A stretch of DNA of 64,000 nt, from assembly GCA_934122085.1 (NCBI GenBank), contig CAKOVS010000003.1, forward strand, positions 17,734 through 81,733, written 5' to 3'. Numbering within the stretch: the stretch's first letter is position 1; every line of letters begins with the position of its first letter. The position numbers were made by a program, and so were the translations under genes. The notes under the pieces were generated by a model. That model had not been told where the DNA came from, did no database searches, and saw only the letters and a program-made list of their open reading frames with translations. Positions 7,843 through 55,087 of the stretch are shown here, piece by piece. Source of the stretch: an uncultured Clostridia bacterium (GTDB lineage: Bacteria > Bacillota > Clostridia > TANB77 > CAG-508).

Positions 7843-7845
7843 AGA

Positions 7846-8874
7846 TTATCTCTTCCTTGCATTTTTTAGTACCGTTTTTAATTTATCTATTTCTTGTAAT
7901 GTTTTTCCTGTTCCTCTTACTACACATTCTAATGGATCTTCCGCAACATATGTTGGCATTCCTGTTTCCATACTAATAAGCTTATCCAAGTTTTGAACCA
8001 AAGCTCCTCCACCTGATAACATTATTCCTTTTTCCATAATATCTGAAGCTAATTCCGGTGGTGTTTTTTCTAATGTTATTTTTACCACTTCAACAATCTG
8101 AGCAATTGAATCTTTTATAGCTTCTTCTACCTGTCCTGATGTAATTATTTCTGTTGCTGGTAATCCTGTTGTAAGATCTCTTCCTTTAATTTTCATACTC
8201 ATTTGTGACATTAAAGGTAATGCACATCCTAATTCTTTTTTTATGTTTTCAGCTGTTGTTTCTCCTATTGCTAAATTTAACTCTCTTTTTACATAGTTTA
8301 TAATATCTTCATTAAGTTCATCTCCTGCAATTCTTATTGAATTACTTAATACTATTCCTCCTAAAGATATTACTGCAACTTCTGTTGTTCCTCCACCAAT
8401 ATCAACTATAATATTTCCACTTGGTTGTTCAATTTCTATTCCTGCCCCAATAGCAGCTGCCATTGGTTCTTCAATCAAATAAACTTCTTTTGCTCCTGCT
8501 CGTATTATTGTTTCCTCAACTGCTCTTTCTTCTACTTCAGTAATTCCTGATGGTACTCCTACAATCACTCTTGGCCTTATTGCATTATATTTTCTACATA
8601 CTTTATCCATTATCCTTTTTAATAATAACTTCGTTGCAGTAAAATCTGCAATAACACCATCCTTTAAAGGTCTTATTGCACTTATTTCTTTTGGTGTTCT
8701 TCCTAACATTTCTTTAGCTTCATTTCCTATTGCTATGACATTACCTGTTTGGTTTTCGATTGCTATAACTGCTGGTTCTCTATATACAACTCCTTTTCCA
8801 TTTAATGTAACTAAAATATTTGCAGTTCCTAAATCTATTCCTATATCTCTAGATTTTAATGATAAAAAACTCAT
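7846..8874 (-). CDS. mreB: Rod shape-determining actin-like protein MreB
   Basis: MSFLSLKSRDIGIDLGTANILV... actin-fold phosphate-1 motif; start chosen at the third ATG after GGAAGGA. Confidence 0.9.
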   Translation of the reverse strand: MSFLSLKSRDIGIDLGTANILVTLNGKGVVYREPAVIAIENQTGNVIAIGNEAKEMLGRTPKEISAIRPLKDGVIADFTATKLLLKRIMDKVCRKYNAIRPRVIVGVPSGITEVEERAVEETIIRAGAKEVYLIEEPMAAAIGAGIEIEQPSGNIIVDIGGGTTEVAVISLGGIVLSNSIRIAGDELNEDIINYVKRELNLAIGETTAENIKKELGCALPLMSQMSMKIKGRDLTTGLPATEIITSGQVEEAIKDSIAQIVEVVKITLEKTPPELASDIMEKGIMLSGGGALVQNLDKLISMETGMPTYVAEDPLECVVRGTGKTLQEIDKLKTVLKNARKR

Positions 8875-8898
8875 TTTCCCCATTCCTTCCAAATGTTT

Positions 8899-9603
8899 TT
8901 ATATATTATCTACACCTATTTTTGAAAAAATACTAATATAATTATTTCCTCCAATTATTATATGATCAATTAAATTTATTCCTAATATTGCAGAAGCTTT
9001 TTTTACTTCTCTTGTAAATTCAATATCATTTTTACTTGGTGTTACGTCACCTGATGGATGATTATGTACAAGTATAATTTGCATTGCCTGTACTTTAACT
9101 GCTTCATTAAGTACATCTTTTATACTTGCTTTTACAAAATTTCCGCATCCTTTTGCTATATCTTTAATCTTTAATAATTTATTTTTATTTCCAAGTATTA
9201 CCACTTTTAATATCTCTTGTTTTTCAAATCTCATTTCTTCAAATAGTATATCTACAACATCACTGGGTTTACTAATTATTATGTTTTTGTAATTGTCTAT
9301 CGAATTCATTCTTGACGCTAATTCACATGTTGCTTTTATTTGAATTGCCTTTACTTTTCCAATTCCTTTTATTTTTTTTAATTCTTCAATTGTTATTTCT
9401 CTTAAAAAATTCAGATTATTTCTATCTTGATTTTCATTTAATAATAAAATTTTTTGCGCTAATTGTACTGATGTTTCTTCTCTCGTTCCACTTTTTATTA
9501 TTATTGCTAATAACTCTGCATTTGTTAAATTTTTTTCTCCATATTGTTCTAATTTTTCATATGGTCTTTCCGTTACTGGTAAATTTTTCATTTTAATTGG
9601 CAT
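8899..9603 (-). CDS. radC: RadC-like JAB/MPN domain protein
   Basis: N-terminal HhH motif, C-terminal 'HNHPSGDVTPSKNDIEFT' JAMM motif; conserved position upstream of mreB. Confidence 0.85.
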   Translation of the reverse strand: MPIKMKNLPVTERPYEKLEQYGEKNLTNAELLAIIIKSGTREETSVQLAQKILLLNENQDRNNLNFLREITIEELKKIKGIGKVKAIQIKATCELASRMNSIDNYKNIIISKPSDVVDILFEEMRFEKQEILKVVILGNKNKLLKIKDIAKGCGNFVKASIKDVLNEAVKVQAMQIILVHNHPSGDVTPSKNDIEFTREVKKASAILGINLIDHIIIGGNNYISIFSKIGVDNI

Positions 9604-11982: not shown

Positions 11983-12225
11983 CTATTGAATTTGTTTTTT
12001 CAAATTATCAATTTCTTTAATTTCTGCTTTTGCAGAATGATTTGAATATCCTTTCAAATTTGCTATTTTAACTAAATCATATTGCAAACTTTCTTCATTA
12101 TTTCTTATTTGTTGTATTATTTGTCTTAATCCTATATTATCACATTCACATATTGCATTTTGATAGTTTTTTATACTTAACTTTAAATCTTGGATAACAT
12201 CATTTATCATTGTTTTTTCTTCCAT
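11983..12225 (-). CDS. Small CotF-like (spore coat protein F family) protein
   Basis: 80 aa; pattern ...YQNAICECDNIGLRQIIQQIRNNEESLQYDL resembles the coat F domain. Confidence 0.4.
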   Translation of the reverse strand: MEEKTMINDVIQDLKLSIKNYQNAICECDNIGLRQIIQQIRNNEESLQYDLVKIANLKGYSNHSAKAEIKEIDNLKKQIQ

Positions 12226-12248
12226 CTTTATATTATACCTTTCATATA

Positions 12249-12437
12249 CTAATTATTAACAAAACTCATAAGTACTTGTTTAATATTTAATGCATCTTGT
12301 AATATATTGTTAAATATCTGCTGTACTTGCAAATCTTGTATTTGTGATAAATATGTGCTTATTTTTTGATATTTCATATCGTTTAAGAAAATTATTTGCC
12401 TTATATATTCTAGTTCCAATTTTGTTAAATCTGGCAT
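12249..12437 (-). CDS. Small CotF-like protein (second gene of the pair)
   Basis: 62 aa; adjacent to and co-oriented with the previous gene; similar helical pattern. Confidence 0.3.
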   Translation of the reverse strand: MPDLTKLELEYIRQIIFLNDMKYQKISTYLSQIQDLQVQQIFNNILQDALNIKQVLMSFVNN

Positions 12438-19298: not shown

Positions 19299-19328
19299 AT
19301 TTTCTCCTTCTTTTCAACTCTTAATCTC

Positions 19329-19350
19329 TTTGTTAACTACGGCTAACATT
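19329..19350. promoter_or_regulatory. Candidate DtxR-family operator upstream of the regulator-suf operon
   Basis: TTGTTAACTACGGCTAACATTA resembles the IdeR/DtxR box TTAGGTTAGGCTAACCTAA (about 13/19); about 30 bp upstream of the regulator start. Confidence 0.2.
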
Positions 19351-19447
19351 ATACTATACATTATGGAAATTTGTCAATATTTTTTATAATATTACCATTT
19401 ATAATATTACAAGAAAAAAAGGAACTATAAACAAGTCCCTTTCCATA

Positions 19448-20893
19448 TTATTTACATTCTTCATAACTATTTACTAAAAATTCATTTTTTCCATCAAATT
19501 TAATCATTAAAACTTTTGTATAATTTTCAACACTTGGTTTTCCTATCTCTTCTATTATTAAACTTGCTTTATGCTTTCTTAAGGTATCAAACGTATTCAT
19601 AAATCCCATTCCAGTACCACCTTCAGTTGAATATGTTGTAACTGGTTTCTTTCCAAGATTGTCTAATGTTTCTTTTTTGAATTCTACTCCAGAATCATAA
19701 ATGTATAATCCATATATTCCATCTATATTTCCTAATTTTACCAAAATACTTTTGTTTATATTATCTGTATGGTTTACTGCTATTATTGCATCTTTTATAT
19801 GGTCTGCTAATAAAGTTTCTAACTCTTCCTTAGAAATTAAATTATTGATCATGTAATGTATATTTCCCTTTAGTACTAGTGTAAATTCTATTTTATATTT
19901 TTGACATTCTGCCTGCATACATTTTAACATATCATCTATTATTGTAACTCCTGTTTTATCTAATTCTATTATTTCTTTTTCATCATAAATATCATTTTTT
20001 AGTTTTTCTAACCTTTCTTTTATTTCCGTAGCATCTTCTGTGCTTATTTCTGTTTTTGTTAATAATTCTGATAATTTATATTCTAATGATTTTTGTTTAT
20101 GTACTATCGTGTGTCTTTTCTTACTTATTCTAATATTTTCTGCTTCTAGTTCTGCAATTTCTTTTTTCTTGTTTTCTAATTCTTCTTTTGTTTCTTTTAA
20201 GTCTTTTATTAACATTTTTTGTTTGTAATATAATTGTAAAGATTTTTGGATAGTTATGAGCATTAAGACTAGAAAAATTATAAAAATGCAAAATGAGTTA
20301 TTAGTCGAAAGTCTATTTCTATTGTAAAACACAACACCTATACCTAAAATGCCTACACTAATACTTAATATAAGAACATCTATATATTCATTAGAAAATT
20401 TATCTTGTAGAGAAACTATACCATATTTAAATTTTTTTACGTCTAATACTTGTTTTAATAATATTAAATAAATAAACATTATCACAATAAAATTTATGTA
20501 ATCATTTATATTCCTTAATATTATTTTGTTTATAAAAAAACTTAAAATTAAAGAAATAAAATAGATTGCATAGCAAAAAGCTATACTAATAGTAGTTAAA
20601 AATATATTATATCCTATATTTCTTTTAGTTATTAATGTTGATATACAACTCATTGAAAAAACAAAAAATACAGTACTATTAAGAAAATTAGTTTTATAAT
20701 TAATTAATTCTATAACTGGTGCTAAAATAATTAGACATATATATCCTAAAATTTTATTAACTGAAAAAATTTCTTTATCATTTATAATTTTTAGAATTAT
20801 AAATTGAGTAGAAAAAACAAATAATAATTTTCTAACTATATTCACAATAATGACACTGTCAATATTCATTACTTTTCTCGTATAATCAATCAT
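19448..20893 (-). CDS. Orphan membrane sensor histidine kinase (multi-TM N-terminus, coiled-coil, C-terminal GHKL ATPase)
   Basis: About 6 TM helices, coiled-coil KETKEELENKKKEIAELEAENIR, C-terminal ATP-lid TEGGTGMGF; resembles AgrC/LytS-type (HPK10-like) kinases. Confidence 0.7.
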   Translation of the reverse strand: MIDYTRKVMNIDSVIIVNIVRKLLFVFSTQFIILKIINDKEIFSVNKILGYICLIILAPVIELINYKTNFLNSTVFFVFSMSCISTLITKRNIGYNIFLTTISIAFCYAIYFISLILSFFINKIILRNINDYINFIVIMFIYLILLKQVLDVKKFKYGIVSLQDKFSNEYIDVLILSISVGILGIGVVFYNRNRLSTNNSFCIFIIFLVLMLITIQKSLQLYYKQKMLIKDLKETKEELENKKKEIAELEAENIRISKKRHTIVHKQKSLEYKLSELLTKTEISTEDATEIKERLEKLKNDIYDEKEIIELDKTGVTIIDDMLKCMQAECQKYKIEFTLVLKGNIHYMINNLISKEELETLLADHIKDAIIAVNHTDNINKSILVKLGNIDGIYGLYIYDSGVEFKKETLDNLGKKPVTTYSTEGGTGMGFMNTFDTLRKHKASLIIEEIGKPSVENYTKVLMIKFDGKNEFLVNSYEECK

Positions 20894-21086
20894 ATAGAAA
20901 TATTAATCTATAATTGATTATTTCCTTTCTTTTAAATTTTGATATATTATACTTCACTATGTATAATATATTTAATACACTGCAGATTTGTTTCTATTAC
21001 TTTACAGCCATTTTTATGGACTGATCAAATGAAACTAACACCATAGATTTTTCTTTTATTCTTTCATTATATCCTAAAATAAAAAA

Positions 21087-21122
21087 ATAAGCAATATAAG
21101 AAATTTCTTACACTGCTTATTG
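21087..21122 (-). terminator. Intrinsic terminator immediately after the Trp-rich sORF
   Basis: Minus-strand aataagcagtgtaagaaatttcttatattgcttatt followed by TTTTTTTATTTT. Confidence 0.5.
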
Positions 21123-21127
21123 GCTTT

Positions 21128-21178
21128 TTAGCCCCACCATTTTCCAATCCAATCCATTAATTCATCCCACCAGTCCAT
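21128..21178 (-). CDS. 16-codon Trp-rich sORF (MDWWDELMDWIGKWWG): candidate leader or signalling peptide
   Basis: SD AAAAGGTGGTGA 6 nt upstream of ATG; 5 Trp in 16 residues including two WW pairs; terminator hairpins directly downstream; lies between the Spo0A-like RR and the orphan kinase. Confidence 0.35.
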   Translation of the reverse strand: MDWWDELMDWIGKWWG

Positions 21179-21448
21179 TCTCTTTCACCACCTTTTTATC
21201 TTTTGTGCTCGATCCATCATGTTTTTGATATAATCAAAATATCATTCTAAGTCTTGATACAAGTGATTTTGGGTGATAGAGAATATATAAATAATTTGGT
21301 AATTTTTAAATTTTATTAGTTATTTTTTTGGAATTTTATTCCAATTTTTATTTTATTTACAGATTGTGTAAATTTTCTTACTTTAAACATTTATTTTTCT
21401 AGATTTTCAGTTTTTTTCAAAAAATACTATTTGTTACTATTTTTGAAA

Positions 21449-21490
21449 GCAAAAAAAAAAAAACTGATCTATAAAAATCAGTTCTTTTTA
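21449..21490. terminator. Bidirectional terminator after the response regulator gene
   Basis: A13-aactgat-ctataaaa-atcagtt-cttttt. Confidence 0.5.
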
Positions 21491-22279
21491 TATCATTTCT
21501 TTTACTTTATCTTTATAATAATAAATAAACTCCATTGGTGTTGGTACTCCTGTTTCATAATTAACTCTTGCCGTATAATACTTAGTCAAATCTTCAATTG
21601 GAGTAACCCTCCATGCATGGAAAATTGCATTTTGTATTCCATTAGTAATTGTCGTTGCAGACCTTTTATGCAAATTAGATAAATATTGAATCAAATTAGA
21701 ACTAGCACCTTCATTTTCAATTAAATATAAAATTGCATCATGAATATATGCTTTTCCTTTTAGTTTTGATGTTATACCAACAAGCTCTAATTCTTTATTT
21801 ATACAACTAGAAATTTTACTTTTTTCATCTTTCAATGTATCTTCCACAGATTTCTTTTCCTCTATAGTCAAATCTGCTTTTCTCATATTTATGAAATGAT
21901 TTAATACTAAATTAGCTGAATATTTTGGATGATCTTTATATAATATAAAATCAACACCATTCCTATGTAAAATATCATATGTTCTTTTTGAATTTACATG
22001 TGTTGTTACTATAACTATTGGATCACAATTTAAATTCAAAGCTTTTAAATCTGTTATGAAACTCAATGCATCTGCATTACCCGTTGAACTATTATTTAAT
22101 TCTAAATCTAAAATAATTCCTTCTGGTTTTAAATTTCTAGCATATCTTAATCCATCAATGTCAGAATCTGTTACTGCCACTATTTCTATATCTTTCCTCA
22201 TTTTGGCACAACTTATAAAATTATTGCAATCATTAATATCATCTTCTATAATTAAAATTTTCATAGGTTTCACTTCCAT
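21488..22279 (-). CDS. Response regulator with Spo0A-type C-terminal DNA-binding domain (Spo0A paralog)
   Basis: N-terminal receiver (MKILIIEDD ... IILDLEL); C-terminus GITSKLKGKAYIHDAILYLIEN...TTITNGIQNAIFHAWRV...VPTPMEFIYYY aligns with the Spo0A_C block (GVPAHIKGYLYLREAI...TTASRVERAIRHAIEVAW...KPTNSEFIAMV), but the recognition helix is diverged. Confidence 0.6.
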   Translation of the reverse strand: MEVKPMKILIIEDDINDCNNFISCAKMRKDIEIVAVTDSDIDGLRYARNLKPEGIILDLELNNSSTGNADALSFITDLKALNLNCDPIVIVTTHVNSKRTYDILHRNGVDFILYKDHPKYSANLVLNHFINMRKADLTIEEKKSVEDTLKDEKSKISSCINKELELVGITSKLKGKAYIHDAILYLIENEGASSNLIQYLSNLHKRSATTITNGIQNAIFHAWRVTPIEDLTKYYTARVNYETGVPTPMEFIYYYKDKVKEMI

Positions 22280-22338
22280 ATTTCTTCATTCCTTTCTGTT
22301 TATTTGACTTTTAGTTATAATATATCATATTTTCTAGG

Positions 22339-22366
22339 AAAATCGTATATTCGATGATACGATTTT
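22339..22366. promoter_or_regulatory. Perfect 10-bp inverted repeat in the divergent RR/dGTPase promoter region
   Basis: aaaatcgtat-attcgatg-atacgatttt. Confidence 0.25.
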
Positions 22367-22514
22367 TTGGATAGGCTTTTTGTTAATATATTTATAAGTA
22401 TTTAAATTTATTTTTATATAGATTTTTTTATTTTTTTATTATATAATCAGTTATATAGTTTATAGGAATTTTTCCCTAATAAAAACTTAAATATATTACA
22501 AAAGGATTGATTTT

Positions 22515-23717
22515 ATGAAAAAATTTATAAATGAAAAAGCTGATATTAATAATCCGAAATGGAATAATTTAATACATAGAGAAAAAGAAATTTATAAGAG
22601 AGAAAATGATTTAAGAAGTGATTTTGAACGAGATTACAATAGAATTTTACATTCCAATGCTTATAAAAGAATGAAGCACAAAACTCAAGTATTTTTTTCA
22701 CCTACCAGTGATCATATTTGTACAAGAATGGAACATGTTAGCCATGTTGATTCTATTAGCTACACTATTGCTAATACATTAGGTTTAAATACAGAGTTAA
22801 CTAAAGCTATTGCTATTGGGCATGATTTAGGCCATGCACCCTTTGGTCACCAAGGAGAAAGAATTTTATCTGAAATATCAAAAAAATATATTGGAGATTC
22901 TTTTTGGCATGAAAAAAATGGTGTTAACATTGTTGATAATATTGAATTATTAGAAGATTGTAATTCTAATTTTGAAAACATGAATTTAACCTATGCTGTT
23001 AGAGATGGTATTATTTCACACTGTGGTGAAATTGATGAAAATTGTATAAAACCTCGAAATGATTATATTGATTTAAGCAATTATACTTATCCTAATCAAT
23101 ATAGCCCTTATACTTGGGAAGGTTGTGTAGTAAAAATTTCTGATAAAATTTCTTATATAATTCGTGATATTGAAGATGCAATATATTTACATATTATTGA
23201 TAATCATTTAGATGAACTTTACGATTTATTAAAATATGATAGAGCTCAAAAGATTAATAATTCTAATATTATTAATACTTTAATTTATGATATTTGTTCA
23301 AATTCTTCACCTGAAAATGGTCTTCGTTTTTCTGATGAAAATTTGAAATTATTAAATGATATTAAAAAGTTTAATTATGAACATATTTATTTTAACAAAC
23401 ATCTTCAATATCCTTTTGATTATTTTAGGCTTGTTATTAATCAGATTTTTAATGTTTTGGCTGAATGTTATGATAATGAAAATACTTTGGAGAAATTGAA
23501 TTCTATTAAGGTTTTCTATCCTGTTCTTATTTCTAGTTTTGTTGATTGGATTAAGAAGTATTGGAATTTGACTGATAGGTCTGATTCTAATTTGAAAAAT
23601 AAAGTTGTTTTTGATATGTCTGTTTCTATGGATTTTTATAAGGCTATTATTTATTATATTTCTGGTATGACTGATAATTTTGCTATTAGCTGTTATAATG
23701 AGATTATTGGGTTTTAG
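22515..23717 (+). CDS. dGTP triphosphohydrolase-like HD-domain protein
   Basis: HD motif IGHDLGHAPFGHQGE, N-terminal YNRILHSNAYKRMKHKTQVF typical of the Dgt family. Confidence 0.75.
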   Translation: MKKFINEKADINNPKWNNLIHREKEIYKRENDLRSDFERDYNRILHSNAYKRMKHKTQVFFSPTSDHICTRMEHVSHVDSISYTIANTLGLNTELTKAIAIGHDLGHAPFGHQGERILSEISKKYIGDSFWHEKNGVNIVDNIELLEDCNSNFENMNLTYAVRDGIISHCGEIDENCIKPRNDYIDLSNYTYPNQYSPYTWEGCVVKISDKISYIIRDIEDAIYLHIIDNHLDELYDLLKYDRAQKINNSNIINTLIYDICSNSSPENGLRFSDENLKLLNDIKKFNYEHIYFNKHLQYPFDYFRLVINQIFNVLAECYDNENTLEKLNSIKVFYPVLISSFVDWIKKYWNLTDRSDSNLKNKVVFDMSVSMDFYKAIIYYISGMTDNFAISCYNEIIGF

Positions 23718-23862: not shown

Positions 23863-25409
23863 ATTCACATTCTAATATATTTAAATTAATATCTTCTCTT
23901 GCTTTCTCTATTATCTTCTTGAAATTATATTTACATTCTAATATATTTAAATTAATATTTGTTTAATATAACATCAAAGAATGAAGCCACTCCCATTTAC
24001 ATTCTAATATATTTAAATTAATATCTGCCATCTCCAGAAGCAAAACAGCTTCTTTCAAAATTTACATTCTAATATATTTAAATTAATATAAAAATATTTA
24101 AATGAATGGTGTATACTTTTAAATGATTTACATTCTAATATATTTAAATTAATATGGGATTTCATTACCCACTACCTGCTCTTTTTCTCATTTATTTACA
24201 TTCTAATATATTTAAATTAATATTGCAAAAGTATCACCTTCAAGCATTTCTTGTTGAACATTTACATTCTAATATATTTAAATTAATATGTTTCTGTGTC
24301 TTTTAAATATTTTACATTTACGATATTTACATTCTAATATATTTAAATTAATATGCAAACAAGTATTGTCCACATCGAACTTTAGACCTATTTACATTCT
24401 AATATATTTAAATTAATATATGTTAAAATCAATAGTAACTGCCGAGATATTAGGATTTACATTCTAATATATTTAAATTAATATTTAATGCATTGAAAGA
24501 TTTGAAAAAACTTTATATATTTACATTCTAATATATTTAAATTAATATAAAAGCATTATCGTGCTTGGAGAAGCCAGCCTTAAAAATTTACATTCTAATA
24601 TATTTAAATTAATATCATGGAAAAACACTTGCAGGAATATTGGCAATAATAGGATTTACATTCTAATATATTTAAATTAATATCCCATAAAAAATCCCAT
24701 CATTTTTATTTAAAAATTCCATTTACATTCTAATATATTTAAATTAATATCTTCTGCTTTTTTTATCATATTTTTAAATTCTTTATTTACATTCTAATAT
24801 ATTTAAATTAATATGACGATACAATGAAATGCAGTATTTGCAGTAATTATATTTACATTCTAATATATTTAAATTAATATCTAATATTAACATCTTCCAA
24901 AAAATTATTTATTTCATTTACATTCTAATATATTTAAATTAATATTGTTCTACCATTTAATAATTTAATTAATCCAACAACATTTACATTCTAATATATT
25001 TAAATTAATATAACTCCAAGCTCATGTGCTACACCTTTGGAATCTTTATTTACATTCTAATATATTTAAATTAATATGATCTGCAAGCATTATTTATAAT
25101 TTCCATAAAACTTGAATTTACATTCTAATATATTTAAATTAATATAGAAATGGAAAATTATTTAAACAAAACCATTTAAAATTTACATTCTAATATATTT
25201 AAATTAATATCTTTACATACCAAGCCATACCAAGACACGCAACAACATTTACATTCTAATATATTTAAATTAATATTGCACATCTAAACCAGCACTAGCT
25301 GATACTTCGCTATTTACATTCTAATATATTTAAATTAATATTCAAATATTATTTCTGCATTGTATACTCCACCTAAAATATTTACATTCTAATATATTTA
25401 AATTAATAT
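23863..25409 (-). CRISPR. CRISPR array: 24 repeats of 30 bp (ATTTACATTCTAATATATTTAAATTAATAT on +; reads ...GAATGTAAAT in transcription direction), 23 spacers of 34-38 bp
   Basis: Counted directly; first repeat at 23863 is degenerate (attCaCatt...), consistent with a leader-distal position; cas2-proximal end at 25409. Confidence 0.95.
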
Positions 25410-25594
25410 AGGACTTTATTAAAGCCTTAAACCAAGCATGTTTCATCTTAAAATTCTGTCCATCTCATATTATAATAACACAAAACATTTAAAAAATCTA
25501 TATTTCTCGTTCATGTCCTTTATTCTTCTAATTTTCATAATCTGTCCATAACCATATAATTTAGCAATATTATAGATCGACAGATTTTTCAAAT
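25410..25594 (-). promoter_or_regulatory. CRISPR leader (AT-rich) between cas2 and the first repeat
   Basis: 185-bp AT-rich noncoding stretch; the degenerate repeat lies at the opposite end. Confidence 0.4.
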
Positions 25595-25879
25595 TTACAA
25601 AAAATTATCTGTTTTATCATCTTCAATCATACCAAGAAACTCTTTTTCCATCCAATGTTGATTTCTACTTTTAAACAAAATCACACTATCCTTACTTTCT
25701 CTAATATACCTATCCAATTCAGTTTTCAGCTTAATAGCCTGTGAATTTAATAACTCTCCTTCAAAAACAGAATTCTGAATATGTACCAAATACTTTTTAC
25801 ATGTCTTAAAAACATTTCTCAATACCTTTTGTCCTTCTTTATCTTCTAAATTTATATCATAAACTAAAATAACATACAT
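25595..25879 (-). CDS. cas2: Cas2
   Basis: MYVILVYDI... small Cas2 fold; overlaps the cas1 stop. Confidence 0.85.
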   Translation of the reverse strand: MYVILVYDINLEDKEGQKVLRNVFKTCKKYLVHIQNSVFEGELLNSQAIKLKTELDRYIRESKDSVILFKSRNQHWMEKEFLGMIEDDKTDNFL

Positions 25880-25880
25880 A

Positions 25881-26873
25881 TTACCACCACATTTTAAAAC
25901 CTTCATATTCTTCATCTTCAAGCAAATGTTTAATTAATTTATATACCTCTAATCTCATCAAATATTCATAACTCACTTCTCTGTCCAATTTTTTATGCTT
26001 AATTTTAGTTTGTAATCTCAAATCAATTTCTCTTGTTATATTTTTTCGTGCTTCATCTTTTATATAAATAAAATTAAGACCTTCCTCAAAATCTTTTTCA
26101 GTTATCTGCCTTTTATTTAACATAGAAAAAATTAATCTGTCTGCTATAATTGGTTTGAAAATTTCAGCAATATCTAAACACAATGAGAATCTCCTTTCAG
26201 ATGGCTCATGTAAATAGCTTATAGTAGGATTTAGCTGTGTCTTATAGATTTCACTTAAAACTCTTGTATATATAATTGTATTAACATACGAAATCAACGA
26301 ATTTATTGCATTATCTGGAGGATTTTTTACTCTTTTTTCAAAAGCTATATCCTGATTAATTATAATATTCCATGAATCATAATAAACCTTTCTAATATTT
26401 CCTTCTATTCCCATTAATTCCGGCACATCTTTACACAATTTTATTTGCTTTCTTAAAAAATCTATCTCTTTCATATAATCTTTTAAGTCTTTTCCTCTAT
26501 TATTATAATAAGTTAAATTTCTATAAATATTATATGATGCCGCTTCTATAAAGGCTTTTGCAATATCTAATCTTTTTTCTTTATCATTATAATGTTCAAC
26601 TTGTTTTATTAATAGTTTTCCAGATACAAGAGATTCTTTCGGATAATATGTTCCTGTATAAAATCCATAATAATTAAAAAAATGCACATTTATACCAAAC
26701 TGAGATAAAAAGTTTAATAGACTCGTATTAAAATCAAGTTCTGTCATAACATATATATCATCCACTCGTTCTATAGGTATACTCTTCTTAGTATTATCTT
26801 TATATACTATTTCTAATGTATTATCTTTTCTTTGAAGCCTCCCACTTTTGTATAAATAATATGATTGTTTCAT
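25881..26873 (-). CDS. cas1: Cas1
   Basis: About 330 aa; start MKQSYYLYKSG with AAAGGAA RBS; position between cas4 and cas2. Confidence 0.9.
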   Translation of the reverse strand: MKQSYYLYKSGRLQRKDNTLEIVYKDNTKKSIPIERVDDIYVMTELDFNTSLLNFLSQFGINVHFFNYYGFYTGTYYPKESLVSGKLLIKQVEHYNDKEKRLDIAKAFIEAASYNIYRNLTYYNNRGKDLKDYMKEIDFLRKQIKLCKDVPELMGIEGNIRKVYYDSWNIIINQDIAFEKRVKNPPDNAINSLISYVNTIIYTRVLSEIYKTQLNPTISYLHEPSERRFSLCLDIAEIFKPIIADRLIFSMLNKRQITEKDFEEGLNFIYIKDEARKNITREIDLRLQTKIKHKKLDREVSYEYLMRLEVYKLIKHLLEDEEYEGFKMWW

Positions 26874-26900
26874 TTTTAACAATTCCTTTCTATACACTTT

Positions 26901-27389
26901 TTATACATAGCATAAATCAAAGTAAGAACATTTCTTACAAATCTTTGAATCTATAGCTTTAAGAGGCTTGTCCTGTTCTACAATATTTTCTATGCCTATA
27001 ACAACATTTTTTAATACTTCTCTATCTTCATCTTCTAAAATAATTTTTTTCGTTTCTCTTAATAGTGGAAAATCAATTTCCGCTTTGATATTTTTTATTC
27101 CTTTTTGTTCTAAATAATACATATAATATTTTAATTGCCATATTCCAGCTTCTTCAATTGATTTTGTTTTCTTGACTTCATGTAATACTGCACCATTATT
27201 TATAAAATCTATATTTATAGTATTGTCTATTAAAATGCCTTTCTTTTCTCTGCTATATGTTGTTTCATCTATTATCTTTCCAATTTGTACCAATTCACTA
27301 TTTTGTTCCATATTTATTTGATTTGCAAAATACCATAATCTTCGCTCACATATAAAATAATAATAAACCATTATTCCTGTAATATTCAT
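26901..27389 (-). CDS. cas4: Cas4 (RecB-like nuclease with Fe-S Cys cluster)
   Basis: N-terminal Cys (YYFICERR) plus C-terminal CKKCSYFDLC. Confidence 0.85.
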   Translation of the reverse strand: MNITGIMVYYYFICERRLWYFANQINMEQNSELVQIGKIIDETTYSREKKGILIDNTINIDFINNGAVLHEVKKTKSIEEAGIWQLKYYMYYLEQKGIKNIKAEIDFPLLRETKKIILEDEDREVLKNVVIGIENIVEQDKPLKAIDSKICKKCSYFDLCYV

Positions 27390-27401
27390 ACAATCCTCCT
27401 A

Positions 27402-29594
27402 TTACAATTCTCGCGAATCTATTGAATAACCTTCATCAGCTTCTAAAAGAAGTCCAATTTCTTTATCATATTTTGTATCAATAATATATTTTCCTCTTAT
27501 ATAAGGACATTCTGTTATAAAATTGCCCAATTTCCACTTATTTTTACTATTGATTGATATAAATAATTTATCAATCTTTCTCTTCAATTCATATTTTTTC
27601 TTCTTTTCTTTTTCATTTTCATATTCAGCAAATAAATCCAGATTTTCATCATAAATAATCTTTGGTATTACATCTATATTATCAATATTTCTTAAAATAT
27701 GTTGAGCATCTTTTTTACTAGTATCATAATCAATAATGTTATCTAATATTTTAAATGCCTCTTTAAATTTTTTATAAAATTCTGTTCCTTGTAACATTTC
27801 TTTTGAATATAATTTATCAACTAAATCAATTTTTACCTTTTCCTGTAATATTGCTCCATTATATGGTCTTAATAGTTCTATACTTTTTTCATATATTTCT
27901 TCATCATATATATACCCAACTCCACTTGTGTCTTTGATATATATTTTTACATTCGGAATGTTTTCACAATATTCTCTACTTCTATAACATCTTCCTAATC
28001 TTTGGAATAAACTATCTAATGAAGACATTTCTGTATATAACATATCAAAATCAATATCTAATGATGCTTCAACAATTTGTGTTGTTATCCATATTCCAGC
28101 TTCATCTCTATTTTTAGAAAATTCTTTTATATTTCTTTCTTTTTCACTTCTATCTGATTGTATAAACCTTGAATGCAATAAATTAACATTTTGAACATCT
28201 TCATCTTTTAATTTTTGATATATTTCAATTGCTTTATTTATTGTATTTACAATTATTAATACCTTTTTATTCTTAGAGTTCTCTTTTATTTCTTCTAAAT
28301 CTTCTTCTATTCCTGAATCCACTAATTGAATTTTATGTCTTATTGTATCTTTTATAAATTCATCATATTCAAACTTTATTCCCATTTCTTCTAGCTTTTC
28401 TTTATATATTCTAGGAAGTGTTGCTGTCATTACCATAAATTTTCCATTTAAATTATTTATCATTTGTAAGCCTTTTAAAATAACTGCTACTATTTCAGGT
28501 GAATATGCTTGAATTTCATCAATTACTACTTTTGAATAACTTAATGTTGCATATATTTTTTCATATCCTCTATATTTAAATACAAATGGAAAAATTTGAT
28601 CTATTGTACATGTTGTAATTTTTTCATACAAATTTCGTGCTTGTTCTATTTTTTCAAATTCATTTTCTTCATTTTTATCATCTAAATAATCTATTGCTGT
28701 TGAGTGTAATAATCCAACATGCTCATATCCTATTGTTTCTTTTATCCTGTCATATATTGCATTTATACTTATTCTTAATGGTAATGTAAAAAAGGTTTTA
28801 TCATGATTACTCCAAAGTAATGCTCCTTCTGTTTTTCCCATACCAGTTGAACCAATTACTATAACATTTTTATTTTGATTTGCTTTTGCAAATTGTTGTA
28901 AATCATTTGGTTCAAAATCTTGTTTCTTCATAAATTCTTCTACGAATTTTGAAATTTCATTTTTTGTCTCATCTTCAACTGGTATCCAAGCAGAACTACA
29001 GTGATCCAATCTATGTAACAATCCTTTCATTATACAATAATCTTTATATATGTCATCAAATTCAGTTATTCTAGCTTGTCCTTCTACCATTCCTAAATAT
29101 GTTGTTTTTAATTCTGGTACTTTGATTTGTAATTCATTCTCTATTTTTTCAATATTAGGTTCAATATCTTCATTTATTATTTCACTTAATAATTGTTCAT
29201 CTATATGTATTATATTTTCTCTTTCATGATGATAGTAAATTGCTTGATATACCAATTTTCTTTCTGTTTTTGTTAATTCATATTCTTTATAGGGTACAAA
29301 CATTGGAGATATTTGTTCATGCTTTATTTGCTCATTATTAAATTTTGTAACCAATAGTGGTTCTCCTATTGCTTTTCTTATTACATTTTGAAAACCTGAA
29401 TAAACTTTTCCTGCATCATGATATTTACATATTATTTCCATTAGTTGCCAAAATCTATCTTCTGGCATATCTATTACTTGTACTATTTTCGCACCATAAG
29501 TTCTTTTTAAAATTTCAAGATTCTCTAATAATTTATCAGTATGTTCTTTTATTGTTTCTATTGGATTTGATTTTGCATAATATTTATAATTCAT
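27402..29594 (-). CDS. cas3: Cas3 (HD nuclease fused to SF2 helicase)
   Basis: HD motif (KYHDAGK), Walker A GSTGMGKTE, DExH VIDEIQ; start MNYKYYAKS with AAAGGA RBS. Confidence 0.9.
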   Translation of the reverse strand: MNYKYYAKSNPIETIKEHTDKLLENLEILKRTYGAKIVQVIDMPEDRFWQLMEIICKYHDAGKVYSGFQNVIRKAIGEPLLVTKFNNEQIKHEQISPMFVPYKEYELTKTERKLVYQAIYYHHERENIIHIDEQLLSEIINEDIEPNIEKIENELQIKVPELKTTYLGMVEGQARITEFDDIYKDYCIMKGLLHRLDHCSSAWIPVEDETKNEISKFVEEFMKKQDFEPNDLQQFAKANQNKNVIVIGSTGMGKTEGALLWSNHDKTFFTLPLRISINAIYDRIKETIGYEHVGLLHSTAIDYLDDKNEENEFEKIEQARNLYEKITTCTIDQIFPFVFKYRGYEKIYATLSYSKVVIDEIQAYSPEIVAVILKGLQMINNLNGKFMVMTATLPRIYKEKLEEMGIKFEYDEFIKDTIRHKIQLVDSGIEEDLEEIKENSKNKKVLIIVNTINKAIEIYQKLKDEDVQNVNLLHSRFIQSDRSEKERNIKEFSKNRDEAGIWITTQIVEASLDIDFDMLYTEMSSLDSLFQRLGRCYRSREYCENIPNVKIYIKDTSGVGYIYDEEIYEKSIELLRPYNGAILQEKVKIDLVDKLYSKEMLQGTEFYKKFKEAFKILDNIIDYDTSKKDAQHILRNIDNIDVIPKIIYDENLDLFAEYENEKEKKKKYELKRKIDKLFISINSKNKWKLGNFITECPYIRGKYIIDTKYDKEIGLLLEADEGYSIDSREL

Positions 29595-30249
29595 TTTGAA
29601 TCCTTTCACTATAAAAATAAATATTGTCTCCATCTTCATCTTGTAATATTTCTTCTATATGTTGATTTGTATACTTTTCAACATATTTGACATTAACTTT
29701 ATTCCATTTTCTAATATTATCTTGTATTTTATATGTTGTATTTAATCTATAATTAATTCCATTAACTTCATTATCTATCCATTCTGGTACATAAGCATTT
29801 TCTTTTATTTCTGGTTCTTCGACCTCATTAACATCTCCTAGAATTTTTATCGAATCAATCCTTACGATATCTTCATTTCTCCCTAATGTAAATGTTTCTG
29901 TTCCATTAATTATATTTTGATAAATTTTATCAATTATTTCATCTTCTGCTTGTACATGAATAATTAAATTAACATCTAACAACTGATGAACATTTCTAGG
30001 CATTGATGTTACTTTATCTTTTCCTTTATACATTCTTAAATTTTGATAATTACTAAATATCCCTTCATAACTTCCTTGTACAGATATACTCATTGGAAAA
30101 TATTCTCCTGGCTGGGCCTGAAGAATTTTATGAAACATTCCTATTATTGTTGAATATGGTGGCAATGGATATGTTTCAGCAACTTTAGTTGCGAATGGCT
30201 TTTTATAGCATGCTGTTTCTTGGTATAGTTTTAGTTTTAAAATTTTCAT
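29584..30249 (-). CDS. cas5: Cas5 (type I-B)
   Basis: MKILKLKLYQETACYKKPF... RAMP glycine-rich segment; gene position. Confidence 0.75.
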   Translation of the reverse strand: MKILKLKLYQETACYKKPFATKVAETYPLPPYSTIIGMFHKILQAQPGEYFPMSISVQGSYEGIFSNYQNLRMYKGKDKVTSMPRNVHQLLDVNLIIHVQAEDEIIDKIYQNIINGTETFTLGRNEDIVRIDSIKILGDVNEVEEPEIKENAYVPEWIDNEVNGINYRLNTTYKIQDNIRKWNKVNVKYVEKYTNQHIEEILQDEDGDNIYFYSERIQNEL

Positions 30250-30267
30250 TTATACCAATCCTTTCTT

Positions 30268-31176
30268 TTATGCTTTGTAATATTCAGTTACTTTTTCTTT
30301 TAAGTCTTTGAAAAATTCTTCTATATTTTTTGTTTTTCCTTCAAAAATTTCTTCTATTTCTTTTTCATTCTTGAATATGTTTTTTAACATACCTACTTTT
30401 GTGTCATCTAAAATTGATTTATCTCCAATTGTTAAGGTTGTTGTATCTTTTAACATTTCTTTATCAATACTGAATTCACCATTTTTTCCATTTAATTTTA
30501 TTCTTCCTAAAAAGAATGGTGAATTTATGTCATACATTCCTCCAATTACAAATACTGGGCTTAAGTTTTCTTCTCTTCCTCTTATTTCTCTATTTAATAT
30601 TTTTACTATATCTAATAATTGATTTACTCTTTCTGTTTTTTCTTCATTTGATAATTCTATTTCTTCATCTTTTCCTATTTTTTCTAAGTCTATTGTTATT
30701 GTATATGTATAATAACTTAAGTGTTGTTCAACATTTGCAAGGTTTGGAAATTCATTAATTCTATCTGCCAATCCCTTGTTATTTAAAAAATCCATATCAC
30801 TTTTATAATCTTCTAATGATATTGCATTACTTAATCTAACTGCTGCACTTCTGATATTTGAACCATCATTTTTTGCTGTTTTCATATACCCGAAAAGATC
30901 CATCTCTTGAGAATCTTGAATTGTAAACTTATCATCAAATTGAATTGTTCCTTTATCTTTATTTACAACTTGTAAATTCCAATTAAATAATTTATTTCCA
31001 AGTCTTACTATGTCATATCTTAATGCTTGTCTAGAAGCATATGTATAAACACTTCCATCTCCTCTTGTTAATTTTTTTAATTCAGATATATTTCCTATTC
31101 CTTCCCCATAATTTAAACTTTGACCTTTAAATACTAGAGTAATTGATAATCCTTTTTTATTTTTTATATTATCCAT
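30268..31176 (-). CDS. cas7: Cas7 (type I-B, Csh2/Cst2 family)
   Basis: ITLVFKGQSLNYGEG... typical Cas7 N-terminus; about 300 aa. Confidence 0.75.
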   Translation of the reverse strand: MDNIKNKKGLSITLVFKGQSLNYGEGIGNISELKKLTRGDGSVYTYASRQALRYDIVRLGNKLFNWNLQVVNKDKGTIQFDDKFTIQDSQEMDLFGYMKTAKNDGSNIRSAAVRLSNAISLEDYKSDMDFLNNKGLADRINEFPNLANVEQHLSYYTYTITIDLEKIGKDEEIELSNEEKTERVNQLLDIVKILNREIRGREENLSPVFVIGGMYDINSPFFLGRIKLNGKNGEFSIDKEMLKDTTTLTIGDKSILDDTKVGMLKNIFKNEKEIEEIFEGKTKNIEEFFKDLKEKVTEYYKA

Positions 31177-33013
31177 TTATTTTTTCCTCCTCTTTTTTCT
31201 CATATTTATTAGATATTAATCCTGCTAAAAAACTATGTCCTATTGATTCAAAATCTAATCCTGTAGTCTGCATAGTTTCTATAAAAATTGGTGATACATC
31301 TTTTCCCATTGCCATATGTAATCTTATTACAATATCCATAAATTCTTTTTTATTTCCTGCTTTTATGCTATTTAGCATTTTATATGTATATCCATCAAGT
31401 TTGTTGTCTTCACCTTTATTTTTTAATTCTGAGTGAATTTGAACTCCTAAATTATAAATAACATATAATTTGTCATTATTTTTCTTAATATCTTCCACTT
31501 CTTTTCCCTCCTTTTTTAAAGTATTTAATATCATTCTTATTTGTGTTGCTAAAAATGAATTATAACCATTTTTCTTTTCACCTTTTAACATTTCATCTCT
31601 TATCCTGTCATTAATTATATATTTTATATCTTTATTTTTCATAATATAGTCAACTATTTGTAGTCTATATCTGTAATCCCATATTTTTGATAATGTTTTT
31701 TCAGCATATTGTGTAAAAAATATTGACATGTATCTTTTTATATTAAAATATTCAATCCTGCTATATGCTCCATATTCAGCTTCAATTTCTACAACAAATA
31801 TGTTTTCTAATTGCCACATACTTACCTGTTTATCTTGTTCTACAATATCTAATATTAATTCTGAATAAGGATTTTCATTTCTATTTTCATATTTTGATTT
31901 ATTTCCAAAATTAATATTTGTTTTATATAATCTATCTATTCCAGTATCATAATTTACAAAACTTAGTAGTTGTTTTTCTCTATATTCTCCATTTTCTTTT
32001 ATTGTTTTTGTTATTGTTGTCATTCCTGCTGGTATACAAAATAAAATTAATTTACATACATCACATATTGGCATATTTACATTTTGATTCCAAAAGAAAT
32101 TTCTAGCATTATCACTACTTATAGCAAGTGGCACAAAGTTTCCTTCTGAATAATTTGTTGTCAATCCTATTTCATTTTCACACATACAACATCTTTTTAT
32201 TACTTTTTCTTTTAAATATTTTTGGATATCTTCTATTGTCTTTGATTTATCAATATAGTCTTTTATTATTTTTGAATAGATTTTTTCTATATCTTGTGTA
32301 ATATTGCCTTCTTTTGAATTTTCTATATATTCTTTTATTTGTTCAATACTATACTCATTTTGAATAATACCATTAATAAAACCTGTTTCCACAATATTGC
32401 TTACATAATCTTTATGCATAACTTCTTGTTGTTCTTCATAAGATAATGCTGTTTTAACTACATTTAGAAAACTCGGTTGGCCATAATATGTATTACTTAA
32501 GATACTTTTAAATAAATTTAATGTTAATCTTTTATTTATATTGTCTTTTTCTATATTTGAAATCAATTTTTCTTTTATTTCTATAATTTCTTGTTTTGTA
32601 TTTACTTTATCAATTTGTTCATATTGTTCTTTCATTTCTTCATATATAATTTCGTCAATTTTTTTAATTTTACCTAATTGTTTTTTTATCGTGTCTTTAA
32701 TATATTTTTTATTTGATTTTATCTTATCTTTTCGCTCTTTTTCCTTATCTTTATCCTCAAACTCAACTTCTATATTATTTTCCAAATAATCAAATAAACT
32801 CTTGGTTCTAGTTTTTACACTTTCTGCAACATTATATTTTTTGAAAAAATAATTAAAATAATATTTGTGAAAATTTCTTAAATTTTCTGTATCAAACTCA
32901 ATATAATTATTTTTTCTAATCGCAAATTCATCATCATTATCTTCAAGAATTCTTAAAAATCCCACGATTCCAGCATTATAAAACCAATCATTTAAGTATA
33001 CTTTTATCTTCAA
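31169..33013 (-). CDS. cas8b: Cas8b (type I-B large subunit)
   Basis: 614 aa with Cys cluster CCMCENEIG ... CDVCKLILFC; located between cas6 and cas7. Confidence 0.7.
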   Translation of the reverse strand: MKIKVYLNDWFYNAGIVGFLRILEDNDDEFAIRKNNYIEFDTENLRNFHKYYFNYFFKKYNVAESVKTRTKSLFDYLENNIEVEFEDKDKEKERKDKIKSNKKYIKDTIKKQLGKIKKIDEIIYEEMKEQYEQIDKVNTKQEIIEIKEKLISNIEKDNINKRLTLNLFKSILSNTYYGQPSFLNVVKTALSYEEQQEVMHKDYVSNIVETGFINGIIQNEYSIEQIKEYIENSKEGNITQDIEKIYSKIIKDYIDKSKTIEDIQKYLKEKVIKRCCMCENEIGLTTNYSEGNFVPLAISSDNARNFFWNQNVNMPICDVCKLILFCIPAGMTTITKTIKENGEYREKQLLSFVNYDTGIDRLYKTNINFGNKSKYENRNENPYSELILDIVEQDKQVSMWQLENIFVVEIEAEYGAYSRIEYFNIKRYMSIFFTQYAEKTLSKIWDYRYRLQIVDYIMKNKDIKYIINDRIRDEMLKGEKKNGYNSFLATQIRMILNTLKKEGKEVEDIKKNNDKLYVIYNLGVQIHSELKNKGEDNKLDGYTYKMLNSIKAGNKKEFMDIVIRLHMAMGKDVSPIFIETMQTTGLDFESIGHSFLAGLISNKYEKKEEEKING

Positions 33014-33027
33014 TTTTGCACCTCCTT

Positions 33028-33741
33028 TTAAACAATTTGGAACATCCCAAATCCTGCACTATGTTTACTTCCTATCCCTGCTTTATATAAATAACTTAAG
33101 AGTTCTATATCTCCTTCTAATGCAAAAATTCCTGTTGAACATTCTATTTGTTTTTCATAAAATTTTATAATTACTTTTTTTGCTTTAATTGGAGTAATTT
33201 TTAGTGTATCTACTGATTCTAATGGAATATTTGTTATTTTCAATTGTTCTTTAACATTCATTTTTAATGTTTCTTCAAATCTTTCATTCTCAAAAGAATA
33301 ATAATAGTCTTTGTTTTCTTCTCTTTTGCGAACACATAATGGAGATTGAAATTTTATAACTATTTTATTATCTTTAATTTCTTTTTCTGGTATAAGTACA
33401 ATATTTTGTAATGCCCACGAATTCTGATTAATAGAAAATTTCTTGTTTTTTTGATGATTAAATGCATTGTATATCGTAATTGCTGTTTCATAATTTTCTA
33501 TTGTCATATTCATTTCAAATCTTTTGTCTTCTAGTATTATTTCTTGCCCATTAATTTGTGGTTGCCTAAAGAAAATAGAAAAAGCATAAGGTTTTATAAT
33601 ATTATCTTTCTGGTTATAGTACTTCTTAAATTCATTTTCACTATATTCAGATAATGACAATTTTATAAAACTGATTATGCTTCTTCTATAATCAATTGGC
33701 ATTTTTTCATTTTCTAATGTAAAATATAATTTCATTCTCAT
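33028..33741 (-). CDS. cas6: Cas6 (crRNA endoribonuclease)
   Basis: C-terminal glycine-rich loop GIGSKHSAGFGMFQIV; start MRMKLYF after AGGAGGTG. Confidence 0.8.
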   Translation of the reverse strand: MRMKLYFTLENEKMPIDYRRSIISFIKLSLSEYSENEFKKYYNQKDNIIKPYAFSIFFRQPQINGQEIILEDKRFEMNMTIENYETAITIYNAFNHQKNKKFSINQNSWALQNIVLIPEKEIKDNKIVIKFQSPLCVRKREENKDYYYSFENERFEETLKMNVKEQLKITNIPLESVDTLKITPIKAKKVIIKFYEKQIECSTGIFALEGDIELLSYLYKAGIGSKHSAGFGMFQIV

Positions 33742-33974
33742 ATTTTTCACCTCCTTGTATACAAACTTATTTAAGCTTCCTACATTAAAGTAATTATCGT
33801 ACGACATGTATACAAATTATTAACTTTGTTAAATTTTAATCTATATAAATGTAAATTACTGTAATATTAAAATTCGACAAATTGCACCTTCTTTATACCA
33901 TATTTTACATTTTTTTACAAGTATTTTTATTGCTTTTTGCTTATTCTTTTCCAATATTAGGAAAATAGCATACA

Positions 33975-36670: not shown

Positions 36671-36858
36671 ATTTCCTCCTTGTATAATATATTTTTTGGT
36701 TAAAGTCTCCCCCACATTCATATTATTTCTTAATTAAACTTTTTTATAATTATAACATTCTTTTTGTTTTTGTAAAATAAAATATTGTAAATTTTAGTAA
36801 CAAAAATAGATCTAATATTGTAATTAACTTACTGGATATTAGGTCTATTTTGCTTTTA

Positions 36859-42526: not shown

Positions 42527-42645
42527 CATACCTCCTCTGTTTATAATAATACAATAAAAAATAAAAAATGTAAATTAATTTCATAAATTTGTAAAAAAAA
42601 TATATACATGATATAATAAGACAAATAATAAAAATGGAGGAAGTT

Positions 42646-54130: not shown

Positions 54131-54132
54131 CT

Positions 54133-55086: not shown

Positions 55087-55087
55087 A

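Follow-up and report, generated by a model that had tools for sequence, protein, structure and literature searches.

A hypervariable leaderless peptide and sensor module beside a Spo0A-type response regulator suggests a quorum-sensing cassette in uncultured gut Clostridia

We analyzed a stretch of 64,000 nucleotides from a contig of an uncultured Clostridia bacterium (CAKOVS010000003.1; G+C content ~25%), which is referred to as the window in the following, with a focus on a two-component gene pair and the DNA between its two members. The regulator gene (21488-22279, minus strand) encodes a protein of 263 aa with a receiver (REC) and a Spo0A_C domain, and the kinase gene (19448-20893, minus strand) encodes a protein of 481 aa as called, with seven transmembrane (TM) helices. 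An earlier note on this DNA had located both genes correctly and described them as convergent; they are co-directional, with the regulator gene upstream, and are spaced by 594 nt. The gap contains a third gene, an open reading frame (ORF) of 16 codons for the peptide MDWWDELMDWIGKWWG (21128-21178, minus strand), and the gene order on the minus strand is thus regulator, peptide gene, kinase. Read in the same direction, the gap consists of the regulator terminator, ~250 nt of AT-rich DNA, a Shine-Dalgarno sequence, the 16-codon ORF, and a strong terminator. An Rfam scan of positions 19300-22600 returned nothing near threshold, and the gap therefore appears to hold no known riboswitch or small RNA.

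For comparison, 107 loci (identified below by L numbers) were retrieved. Two of them, L015 and L018, are contigs of the window's own species and share its synteny, except for a CRISPR-Cas insertion in the window. Homologs of the regulator and the kinase formed 1637 and 2434 sequence clusters, respectively, at E ≤ 0.001. None of these clusters has a name, the kinases lack any precomputed Pfam domain, and the homologs' genome records are metagenome-assembled genomes (MAGs) of uncultured human-gut Clostridia; genomes of the lineage are small (about 1.5 Mb, 25% G+C, human gut). Judged from these sequence clusters, the cassette family is large, unannotated, and widespread in uncultured gut Clostridia. 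The kinase gene adjoins the regulator gene in nearly all loci, including those of relatives at 31-48% identity, in agreement with the dedicated kinase partner that had been proposed earlier. Searches of plasmid and phage collections with the regulator (tblastn) gave weak partial matches only and no sign of a plasmid- or phage-borne cassette, and no description of this cassette was found in the literature on Spo0A_C paralogs or Spo0A-like quorum sensing.

The peptide encoded in the gap is leaderless, amphipathic, and rich in Trp, with five Trp codons among its 16. Its Shine-Dalgarno sequence AAGGTGGTG (21186-21194, minus strand) is located 7 nt 5' of the ATG and is kept as AAAGGTGGTG in essentially every locus. 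Because an intrinsic terminator (21076-21121, minus strand; 16-bp stem and T-run, -18.6 kcal/mol, z = -4.9) directly follows the ORF, the peptide gene is predicted to be monocistronic. A 14-20-aa ORF was found between the regulator and kinase genes in 50 of the 51 close-subfamily loci with a full-length kinase, and also in L095, where the kinase is truncated. Only L012 deviates: of its two tandem cassettes, the second has no such ORF, and the neighboring one has three peptide genes. The close subfamily comprises 24 distinct peptide sequences, and the peptides follow the pattern M-x-W-[WYF]-[DE]-x-[FL]-x-x-W-[ILVM]-x-[KRH]-W. Neither a conserved Cys nor a GG motif that would precede a mature peptide was present in these ORFs, which are 14-20 aa long as a whole. 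Peptide ORFs were also found in the three distant relatives examined, which have regulators 39-48% identical to that of the window (MFEAYARFVQKWFGI, MSWWDELVDYLTKIFG, and MWDLIDWIGKMLSYWA). At L022 (31% identity), the regulator and kinase genes overlap and no peptide ORF is present. Scans of 20-aa peptide variants against NCBIfam and Pfam retrieved no family, and a full-text literature search with the peptide N-termini retrieved nothing relevant.

The peptide gene and the part of the kinase gene that encodes the sensor were hypervariable within the species of the window. Compared with L018, the DNA of the window was 98.2% identical at positions 23724-21159 and 98.6% identical at positions 20284-17720, with no detectable identity in between; compared with L015, the similarity gap extended from 21137 to 20473. 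The flanks of these same-species loci were 95-98% identical in DNA. From these alignment gaps, the divergent stretch has one boundary inside the peptide ORF and the other at codon ~140-203 of the kinase gene, where the TM domain ends. The resulting hypervariable block (20284-21159, minus strand) contains the part of the ORF for the C-terminal two-thirds of the peptide, the terminator of the peptide gene, the 5' region of the kinase gene, and sensor codons 1 to ~203. Kinases of the same species shared 97-98% identity in their cytoplasmic halves and 27-32% in their sensor halves. Three peptide variants occurred in the window's species (MDWWDELMDWIGKWWG in the window, MDWWDAFVLWFKKWM in L015, and MDWYDAFLIWLRHWLG in L018), and a second species had eight peptide/sensor variants with a regulator that was 97-100% identical throughout.

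Peptide identity was correlated with sensor identity when the cytoplasmic domain was controlled for (partial Mantel r = 0.71 and 0.66, 0 of 2000 permutations each, with 25-26 non-redundant loci), and the reciprocal control was weak (r = 0.12-0.15). Near-identical peptides from different species were accompanied by sensors with 45-50% identity, as compared to 27-32% for different variants within a species. On the basis of these sequence comparisons, the sharing of alleles across species is a trans-species polymorphism. By analogy, a joint pattern of peptide and sensor of this kind marks the specificity groups of agr, comCDE/blp, and comQXPA, and the locus shares with this class of pherotype systems a hypervariable peptide and sensor, several alleles per species, and co-variation between the two. 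This hypervariable, co-varying module points to peptide pheromone signaling and not to the generic orphan-kinase route considered in the earlier note. With its own peptide gene alongside, the kinase can hardly be called an orphan; and while the cassette indeed lacks AgrB, the accompanying statement that it lacks agrD had overlooked the conserved 16-codon ORF in the gap.

The kinase is a multi-TM membrane protein, as had been expected. Its AlphaFold2 (AF2) model contains seven TM helices within residues ~11-222 (predicted local distance difference test, pLDDT, ~85), followed by a coiled coil. In an alignment of 41 sequences the TM half was variable and the cytoplasmic half nearly invariant. Two His residues (H261 and H265) of the H-box SKKRHTIVHKQKS were invariant, and so were the ATP-binding boxes (N374, D400-x-G402, and G426-x-G428-x-G430), which in the window kinase read ADHIKDAIIAxNH (N box), YDSG (G1), and GGTGMGF (G2). 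The only Pfam match of the kinase was HATPase_c, with 16 bits and thus below the cut-off of 26.4. HATPase_c_5 was not matched by the window kinase and reached 17 bits, against a cut-off of 22, in a distant homolog. The best PDB profile match was the catalytic domain of the sporulation kinase KinB (E = 0.004). The designation "AgrC/LytS-type" that had been given to the kinase thus lacks support from hidden Markov models (HMMs) and rests on topology; in this respect, the kinase does resemble the HPK10/AgrC type, being a polytopic sensor with seven TM helices and without a large extracytoplasmic domain. The called start at 20893 has no Shine-Dalgarno sequence. Homologs are 470-477 aa long and begin at the position that corresponds to M9 (20869); translation therefore probably starts there and yields a product of 473 aa. 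A terminator (19416-19444, minus strand) is located 3' of the kinase gene. Kinase ORFs of unusual length were seen in L095 (truncated, 218 aa, 5293-5949) and L005 (687 aa, 7299-9362); the former might be a pseudogene and the latter a fusion, and both could represent loss-of-signaling variants.

The regulator matched the Pfam model Spo0A_C (PF08769) with 48.5 bits (cut-off 25) over residues 160-258 and profile positions 1-103 of 104, and the earlier identification of its C-terminal domain was hence borne out by HMM scoring. The match to Response_reg reached 23.8 bits and stayed below the cut-off of 30.2. The receiver domain appears normal, as had been assumed: D13, D58 (the phospho-Asp, in GIILDLEL), and K115 were invariant and E12 and T93 were at least 90% conserved among 38 family members. 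The AF2 model (pLDDT 86) shows a REC fold and a C-domain with six helices between residues 145 and 262 (pLDDT ~90), and Foldseek matched it to REC domains with E-values down to 1e-8, the Spo0A receivers 1qmp and 5wq0 being among the closest (template-modeling scores 0.83-0.89). The regulator was 100% identical in L015 and 99.2% identical in L018.

Spo0A proper has an invariant recognition helix, SRVERAIRHAIEVAW. In a phmmer alignment with the Spo0A C-domains 1FC3 and 1LQ1, which scored 22-23 bits only, the helix TTITNGIQNAIFHAW of the regulator was opposite ASRVERAIRHAIEVAW, consistent with the divergence of this helix that had been noticed before. T, N, and Q occupy the positions equivalent to Spo0A E213, R214, and R217, residues that were reported by Zhao et al. 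(2002) to be base contacts. The helix TTITNGIQNAIFHAW was invariant within the subfamily, and helices nearer to that of Spo0A, such as DASVERAMQNAI, were found in more distant family members.

Conserved elements were found 5' of both the regulator and the peptide gene. The putative promoter region of the regulator gene (22311-22360, minus strand), ATATA(G/C)(T/G)ATTTT-N10-(T/A)TATG(G/A)TAT(A/T)TTA, combines an extended -10 element with a conserved upstream box and was kept in all orthologous loci, including those without a kinase; in the window, a 0A-like CATCGAA is located just upstream of it. The regulator gene ends in an intrinsic terminator (21449-21485, minus strand; -13.5 kcal/mol, z = -5.2) that is followed by a T13 run. 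The element 5' of the peptide gene (21231-21280, minus strand) comprises a CTATCAC box (21273-21279), an imperfect inverted repeat, and the extended -10-like sequence TGATATTTT (21236-21244). The CTATCAC box and a TG(G/A)TAT(T)TT extended -10-like element were common to all loci at this place, and we regard the element as a putative promoter to which the regulator might bind.

Between the CTATCAC box and the ribosome-binding site of the peptide gene, a terminator-like stem-loop with a T-run was present (21236-21270 in the window; 6847-6880 in L009). Its stem co-varied across loci (74.6% of cells paired vs. 31-49% in slid controls; 26 double changes vs. 6-14), a result obtained for a hand-specified helix only; RNAalifold reported no consensus structure for the region upstream of the peptide gene. 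The stem was strong in most clades (-18 kcal/mol in L009) and decayed in the window (-5.4 kcal/mol, z = -0.3). It may serve as an attenuator, a 5' stabilizer, or an operator.

In L007, L009, L010, L012, and L107, two perfect 0A-type boxes (TTCGNCA / TGNCGAA) were located 10 bp apart 5' of the peptide gene, both reading TTCGACA in L107. A distance of 10 bp is the phasing of the tandem sites of Spo0A. L083 and L084 had one perfect 0A box each 5' of the regulator gene, and the background density of the TTCGNCA motif was 0.16 per kb. The clade of the window had none of these perfect 0A boxes. Either the regulator family can still recognize such boxes with its altered helix, or the cassette is controlled by a canonical Spo0A in those organisms. 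The sequence candidates for binding sites of the regulator are the CTATCAC box, the RTGRTAT elements, and, in some clades only, the TTCGNCA boxes.

A gene for an XRE-type helix-turn-helix protein of ~117 aa (HTH_3, 24 bits) accompanied the cassette in 38 loci, among them most of those outside the clade of the window, and was usually divergent from the regulator gene (L005, L007, L009, L012, L014, L051-L063, L083-L100, L106, and L107, the last two being distant relatives). In L051-L063 it was located between the regulator and peptide genes. The XRE gene was absent from the window, from the close relatives of the window, and from the kinase-less type.

Together, these sequence features suggest that the locus is a leaderless-peptide quorum-sensing two-component cassette with a Spo0A-type output, and we assign a probability of roughly 0.65 to this ligand-receptor interpretation. 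According to this model, the monocistronic gene would give rise to a leaderless, amphipathic, Trp-rich 16-mer that would leave the cell through an exporter encoded outside the cassette. As the co-variation suggests, the peptide would bind to the seven-helix sensor of its cognate kinase, at or within the membrane. The conserved motifs and the adjacency of the genes are consistent with kinase autophosphorylation on H261 (or H265) and phosphoryl transfer to D58 of the regulator, which would then bind DNA through its Spo0A_C-type domain. The altered recognition helix implies targets that differ from the canonical Spo0A regulon. The promoter of the peptide gene would be one likely target, and its activation would result in autoinduction. 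Peptide and sensor would form one exchangeable specificity module, with the regulator and the catalytic half of the kinase remaining constant; such a module on a constant background would place strains of one species in mutually distinct "pherotypes".

Several observations weigh against this interpretation. All comparison loci stem from metagenome assemblies. Scans of the kinase against Pfam and NCBIfam found no curated histidine kinase family above threshold, the catalytic part of its AF2 model had a pLDDT below 50, and a Foldseek comparison of the model with the PDB returned nothing under E = 0.35 and only chance seven-TM receptors. Genes for export or processing were missing from the cassette, and no ABC exporter was found in its flanks. 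Because peptide and sensor are located in one recombination block, their co-variation may partly reflect hitch-hiking, although the strict amphipathic pattern that the varying peptides keep argues against hitch-hiking alone. Finally, the orthologous regulator of sister species (~70% identical) stands alone, without a kinase, peptide, or XRE gene, at a site with the order pcrA, regulator, two Coat_F genes, M23 peptidase, MecA, RadC, and MreBCD, in one case on a contig of 1.55 Mb. Such a syntenic core position fits the role of a master regulator.

This last point bears on the question whether the regulator is a Spo0A paralog, as the earlier note had thought probable, or the Spo0A of this lineage. 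We consider it probable that it belongs to a large paralogous Spo0A_C family and is not the canonical master regulator of sporulation. On the Spo0A equivalog model (NCBIfam TIGR02875), the regulator scored 64.4 bits over residues 5-260, below the cut-off of 200 bits, and it was ~23% identical to Spo0A of Bacillus subtilis (provisional query sequence). MreB and SufS encoded in the window scored 386 and 458 bits, respectively, against their Bacillales orthologs, and the lineage is therefore not generally hyper-divergent. The regulator family is separate and large, with 379 clusters at 50% identity and E ≤ 1e-10, the top 150 of which all scored above 109 bits. It occurs in varied genomic contexts, among them accessory ones with the XRE gene, and in L012 it is present as a tandem duplicate with one kinase per copy. 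Spo0A proper is found in a conserved spoIVB-spo0A neighborhood. No spoIVB was among the neighbors of the cassette in the window, which are a divergent gene for an HD-domain phosphohydrolase and, downstream of the kinase gene, a DtxR-type repressor gene and a suf operon.

The foremost rival explanation holds that the regulator is the bona fide and only Spo0A of the lineage despite its diverged helix, that the kinase is a sporulation kinase, and that the peptide gates sporulation directly. In support of this explanation, direct phosphorylation of Spo0A by kinases is known from Clostridia (PMC11210211). Besides the stand-alone site in sister species, where the Coat_F pair is directly 3' of the orthologous regulator gene (L003, L067, L072, and L103), it is favored by the presence of the same Coat_F/M23/MecA/RadC/MreBCD block 10 kb downstream in the window, with a Coat_F-domain gene (80 aa, 55 bits) and its 62-aa partner at 11983-12437. 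Near the loci of relatives, a gene for a small acid-soluble spore protein (SASP; Pfam) and gerQ and cwlJ-like genes (recognized by eye, no HMM) were found. Because of these genes the lineage probably sporulates, and the stand-alone syntenic site suggests that the regulator is a retained core gene in it. No canonical spo0A was detected in ~0.8 Mb examined, a sample biased by having been taken around the regulator itself. Set against these points are the low score on the equivalog model and the low identity to B. subtilis Spo0A in a lineage whose housekeeping proteins are not unusually diverged, the replacement of the reported base-contact residues, the lack of a spoIVB neighbor, the tandem copies in L012, and the variable accessory contexts of the family. 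On balance, we view a sole Spo0A as a minority possibility that deserves real weight. It is compatible with the peptide-signaling mechanism and differs from our interpretation in orthology and output.

In another scenario, the peptide is not secreted and acts in cis on the kinase, as a subunit in the membrane or as a modulator comparable to MgrB or SafA, with the sensor diversifying under some other pressure (e.g., phages or bacteriocins acting on exposed loops) and the peptide following. The lack of a leader, a processing enzyme, and an exporter would suit a peptide that stays in the cell, its sequence is amphipathic and interface-seeking, and co-variation requires physical interaction only, not secretion. 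However, the peptide gene has its own candidate promoter and terminators, and the peptide is not co-translated with the kinase. Moreover, a large number of discrete alleles within a species, with allele lineages that cross species, is typical of social recognition systems, and in L012 there are more peptide genes (three) than kinases (two). We regard a cis-acting modulator as unlikely.

Still less probable, in our estimation, is a peptide that acts chiefly as a membrane-active effector, similar to phenol-soluble modulins (PSMs) and delta-toxin or to leaderless bacteriocins, whose production would be controlled by the two-component system and for which the variable membrane domain would provide self-recognition or immunity. 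The peptide is indeed short, Trp-rich, and amphipathic, probably keeps its formyl-Met, and has an acidic N-terminus and a basic C-terminus. Pheromones with a dual role are also known in general, for example plantaricin A, which is a pheromone and an antimicrobial at once. At 14-20 aa, however, the peptides are shorter than known leaderless bacteriocins and PSMs, their net charge of about -3 is unlike that of cationic antimicrobial peptides, immunity or transporter genes are not present, and the peptide co-varies with the sensor half of a kinase in particular. We reject trp-type attenuation, in which the small ORF would encode a leader peptide whose Trp codons control read-through of the following terminator into the kinase gene, although five of its 16 codons are for Trp and a strong terminator follows within 6 nt. 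Homologs have Phe, Tyr, Met, Leu, or Ile in place of Trp and retain the D/E and K/R positions as well as the amphipathic pattern. Furthermore, we saw no alternative pairing that could act as an antiterminator, the gene that follows encodes a kinase and not a protein of Trp biosynthesis or transport, and attenuation would leave the co-variation with the sensor domain unexplained.

The proposed quorum-sensing cassette can be compared with known peptide-signaling systems. Like agr (AgrBDCA of Staphylococcus and the agr-like systems of Clostridia), it combines a polytopic kinase, which senses peptides through six to seven TM helices in agr, with an adjoining small peptide gene, has a hypervariable block of peptide and sensor next to a conserved kinase core and regulator, and forms several specificity groups per species, some of which are common to different species. 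Unlike agr, it lacks AgrB and a conserved Cys from which a thiolactone could form, and the peptide is the whole 14-20-aa product. Furthermore, a HATPase_c_5 domain is missing, the output domain of the regulator is Spo0A_C whereas that of AgrA is LytTR, and the genes are arranged in the order regulator, peptide, kinase as separate transcription units.

With ComCDE, BlpCHR, and PlnABCD of streptococci and lactobacilli, the cassette shares a linear, unmodified, amphipathic peptide (~17 aa), a seven-TM kinase, and a wide pherotype polymorphism of the peptide and the N-terminal half of the receptor; those systems are autoinducing, as would be the one proposed here. In contrast, they use a double-glycine leader and an ABC exporter with a C39 peptidase, neither of which is found in this cassette, and their regulators are of the LytTR type. 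ComQXPA of B. subtilis likewise has a polymorphic peptide, a multi-TM sensor kinase, and a conserved regulator, Trp is essential in its signal, and its pherotypes cross species; however, ComX requires the prenyltransferase ComQ, for which the cassette has no counterpart, and ComA is a NarL/LuxR-type regulator.

Spo0A with its direct orphan kinases in Clostridia resembles the cassette in the REC and Spo0A_C architecture, the overall length of the regulator, the direct kinase-regulator wiring proposed here, and the tandem 0A-like boxes (TTCGNCA, 10-bp phase) found 5' of the peptide gene in several family members. The differences, apart from the failed equivalog model, the replacement of residues reported as base contacts, and the missing spoIVB neighbor, are that the kinase is encoded alongside, together with a polymorphic peptide, and that the family usually includes a divergent XRE-type gene, which was lost in the clade of the window.

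If the ligand-receptor interpretation is true, the cassette would represent a new architecture of peptide signaling in Gram-positive bacteria, with a leaderless 14-20-aa peptide of ribosomal origin, no dedicated gene for processing or export, an unannotated seven-TM kinase, and a Spo0A_C output. The three to eight variants within a species offer a ready-made specificity matrix for studying ligand-receptor recognition, and this allelic diversity suggests kin discrimination in uncultured gut commensals. A further-reaching proposal, which we put forward as tentative and rather doubtful, is that a Spo0A-type developmental regulator has been wired to a strain-specific receptor for a leaderless pheromone, with sporulation or an equivalent decision taken by kin-discriminating quorum sensing and Spo0A_C forming a second family of peptide-controlled regulators. 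If the regulator controls sporulation, the transmission of gut anaerobes would be linked to strain-specific communication. Spo0A_C has been regarded as uniquely diagnostic of Spo0A (PMC6136694), and the presence of spo0A serves as the first filter for sporulation potential in MAG surveys (PMC11536998); a large Spo0A_C family that is linked to another input would interfere with such spo0A-based sporulation calls.

The neighborhood of the cassette contains further variable DNA. A type I-B CRISPR-Cas system (24150-25450 and 25595-33807) comprises cas6, a cas8b-like CXXC gene, cas7/DevR, cas5, cas3, cas4, cas1, and cas2, together with a CRISPR array with the 30-nt repeat ATTTACATTCTAATATATTTAAATTAATAT. 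This block was absent from L015 and L018, where the HD gene abuts NUDIX genes, and it is therefore a strain-variable insertion beside the cassette. Positions ~41000-64000 form an island of defense and mobile-element genes. It includes two DNA methyltransferases (41190-42584 and 53111-55116), two GHKL ATPases (42634-45036 and 48399-50162), an insertion sequence element (46955-48312), two HNH proteins (50174-53107), a DUF6602 and an AAA_21 protein, a phage replisome organizer with an IstB-like ATPase (56091-57405), a CBASS-like cyclase with SMODS and AGS_C domains (59083-60399), and a phage integrase (63252-63974). Between the CRISPR-Cas block and the island, a gene of the choloylglycine (bile salt) hydrolase family (35696-36721; CBAH, 363 bits) was found, which is consistent with a gut habitat.

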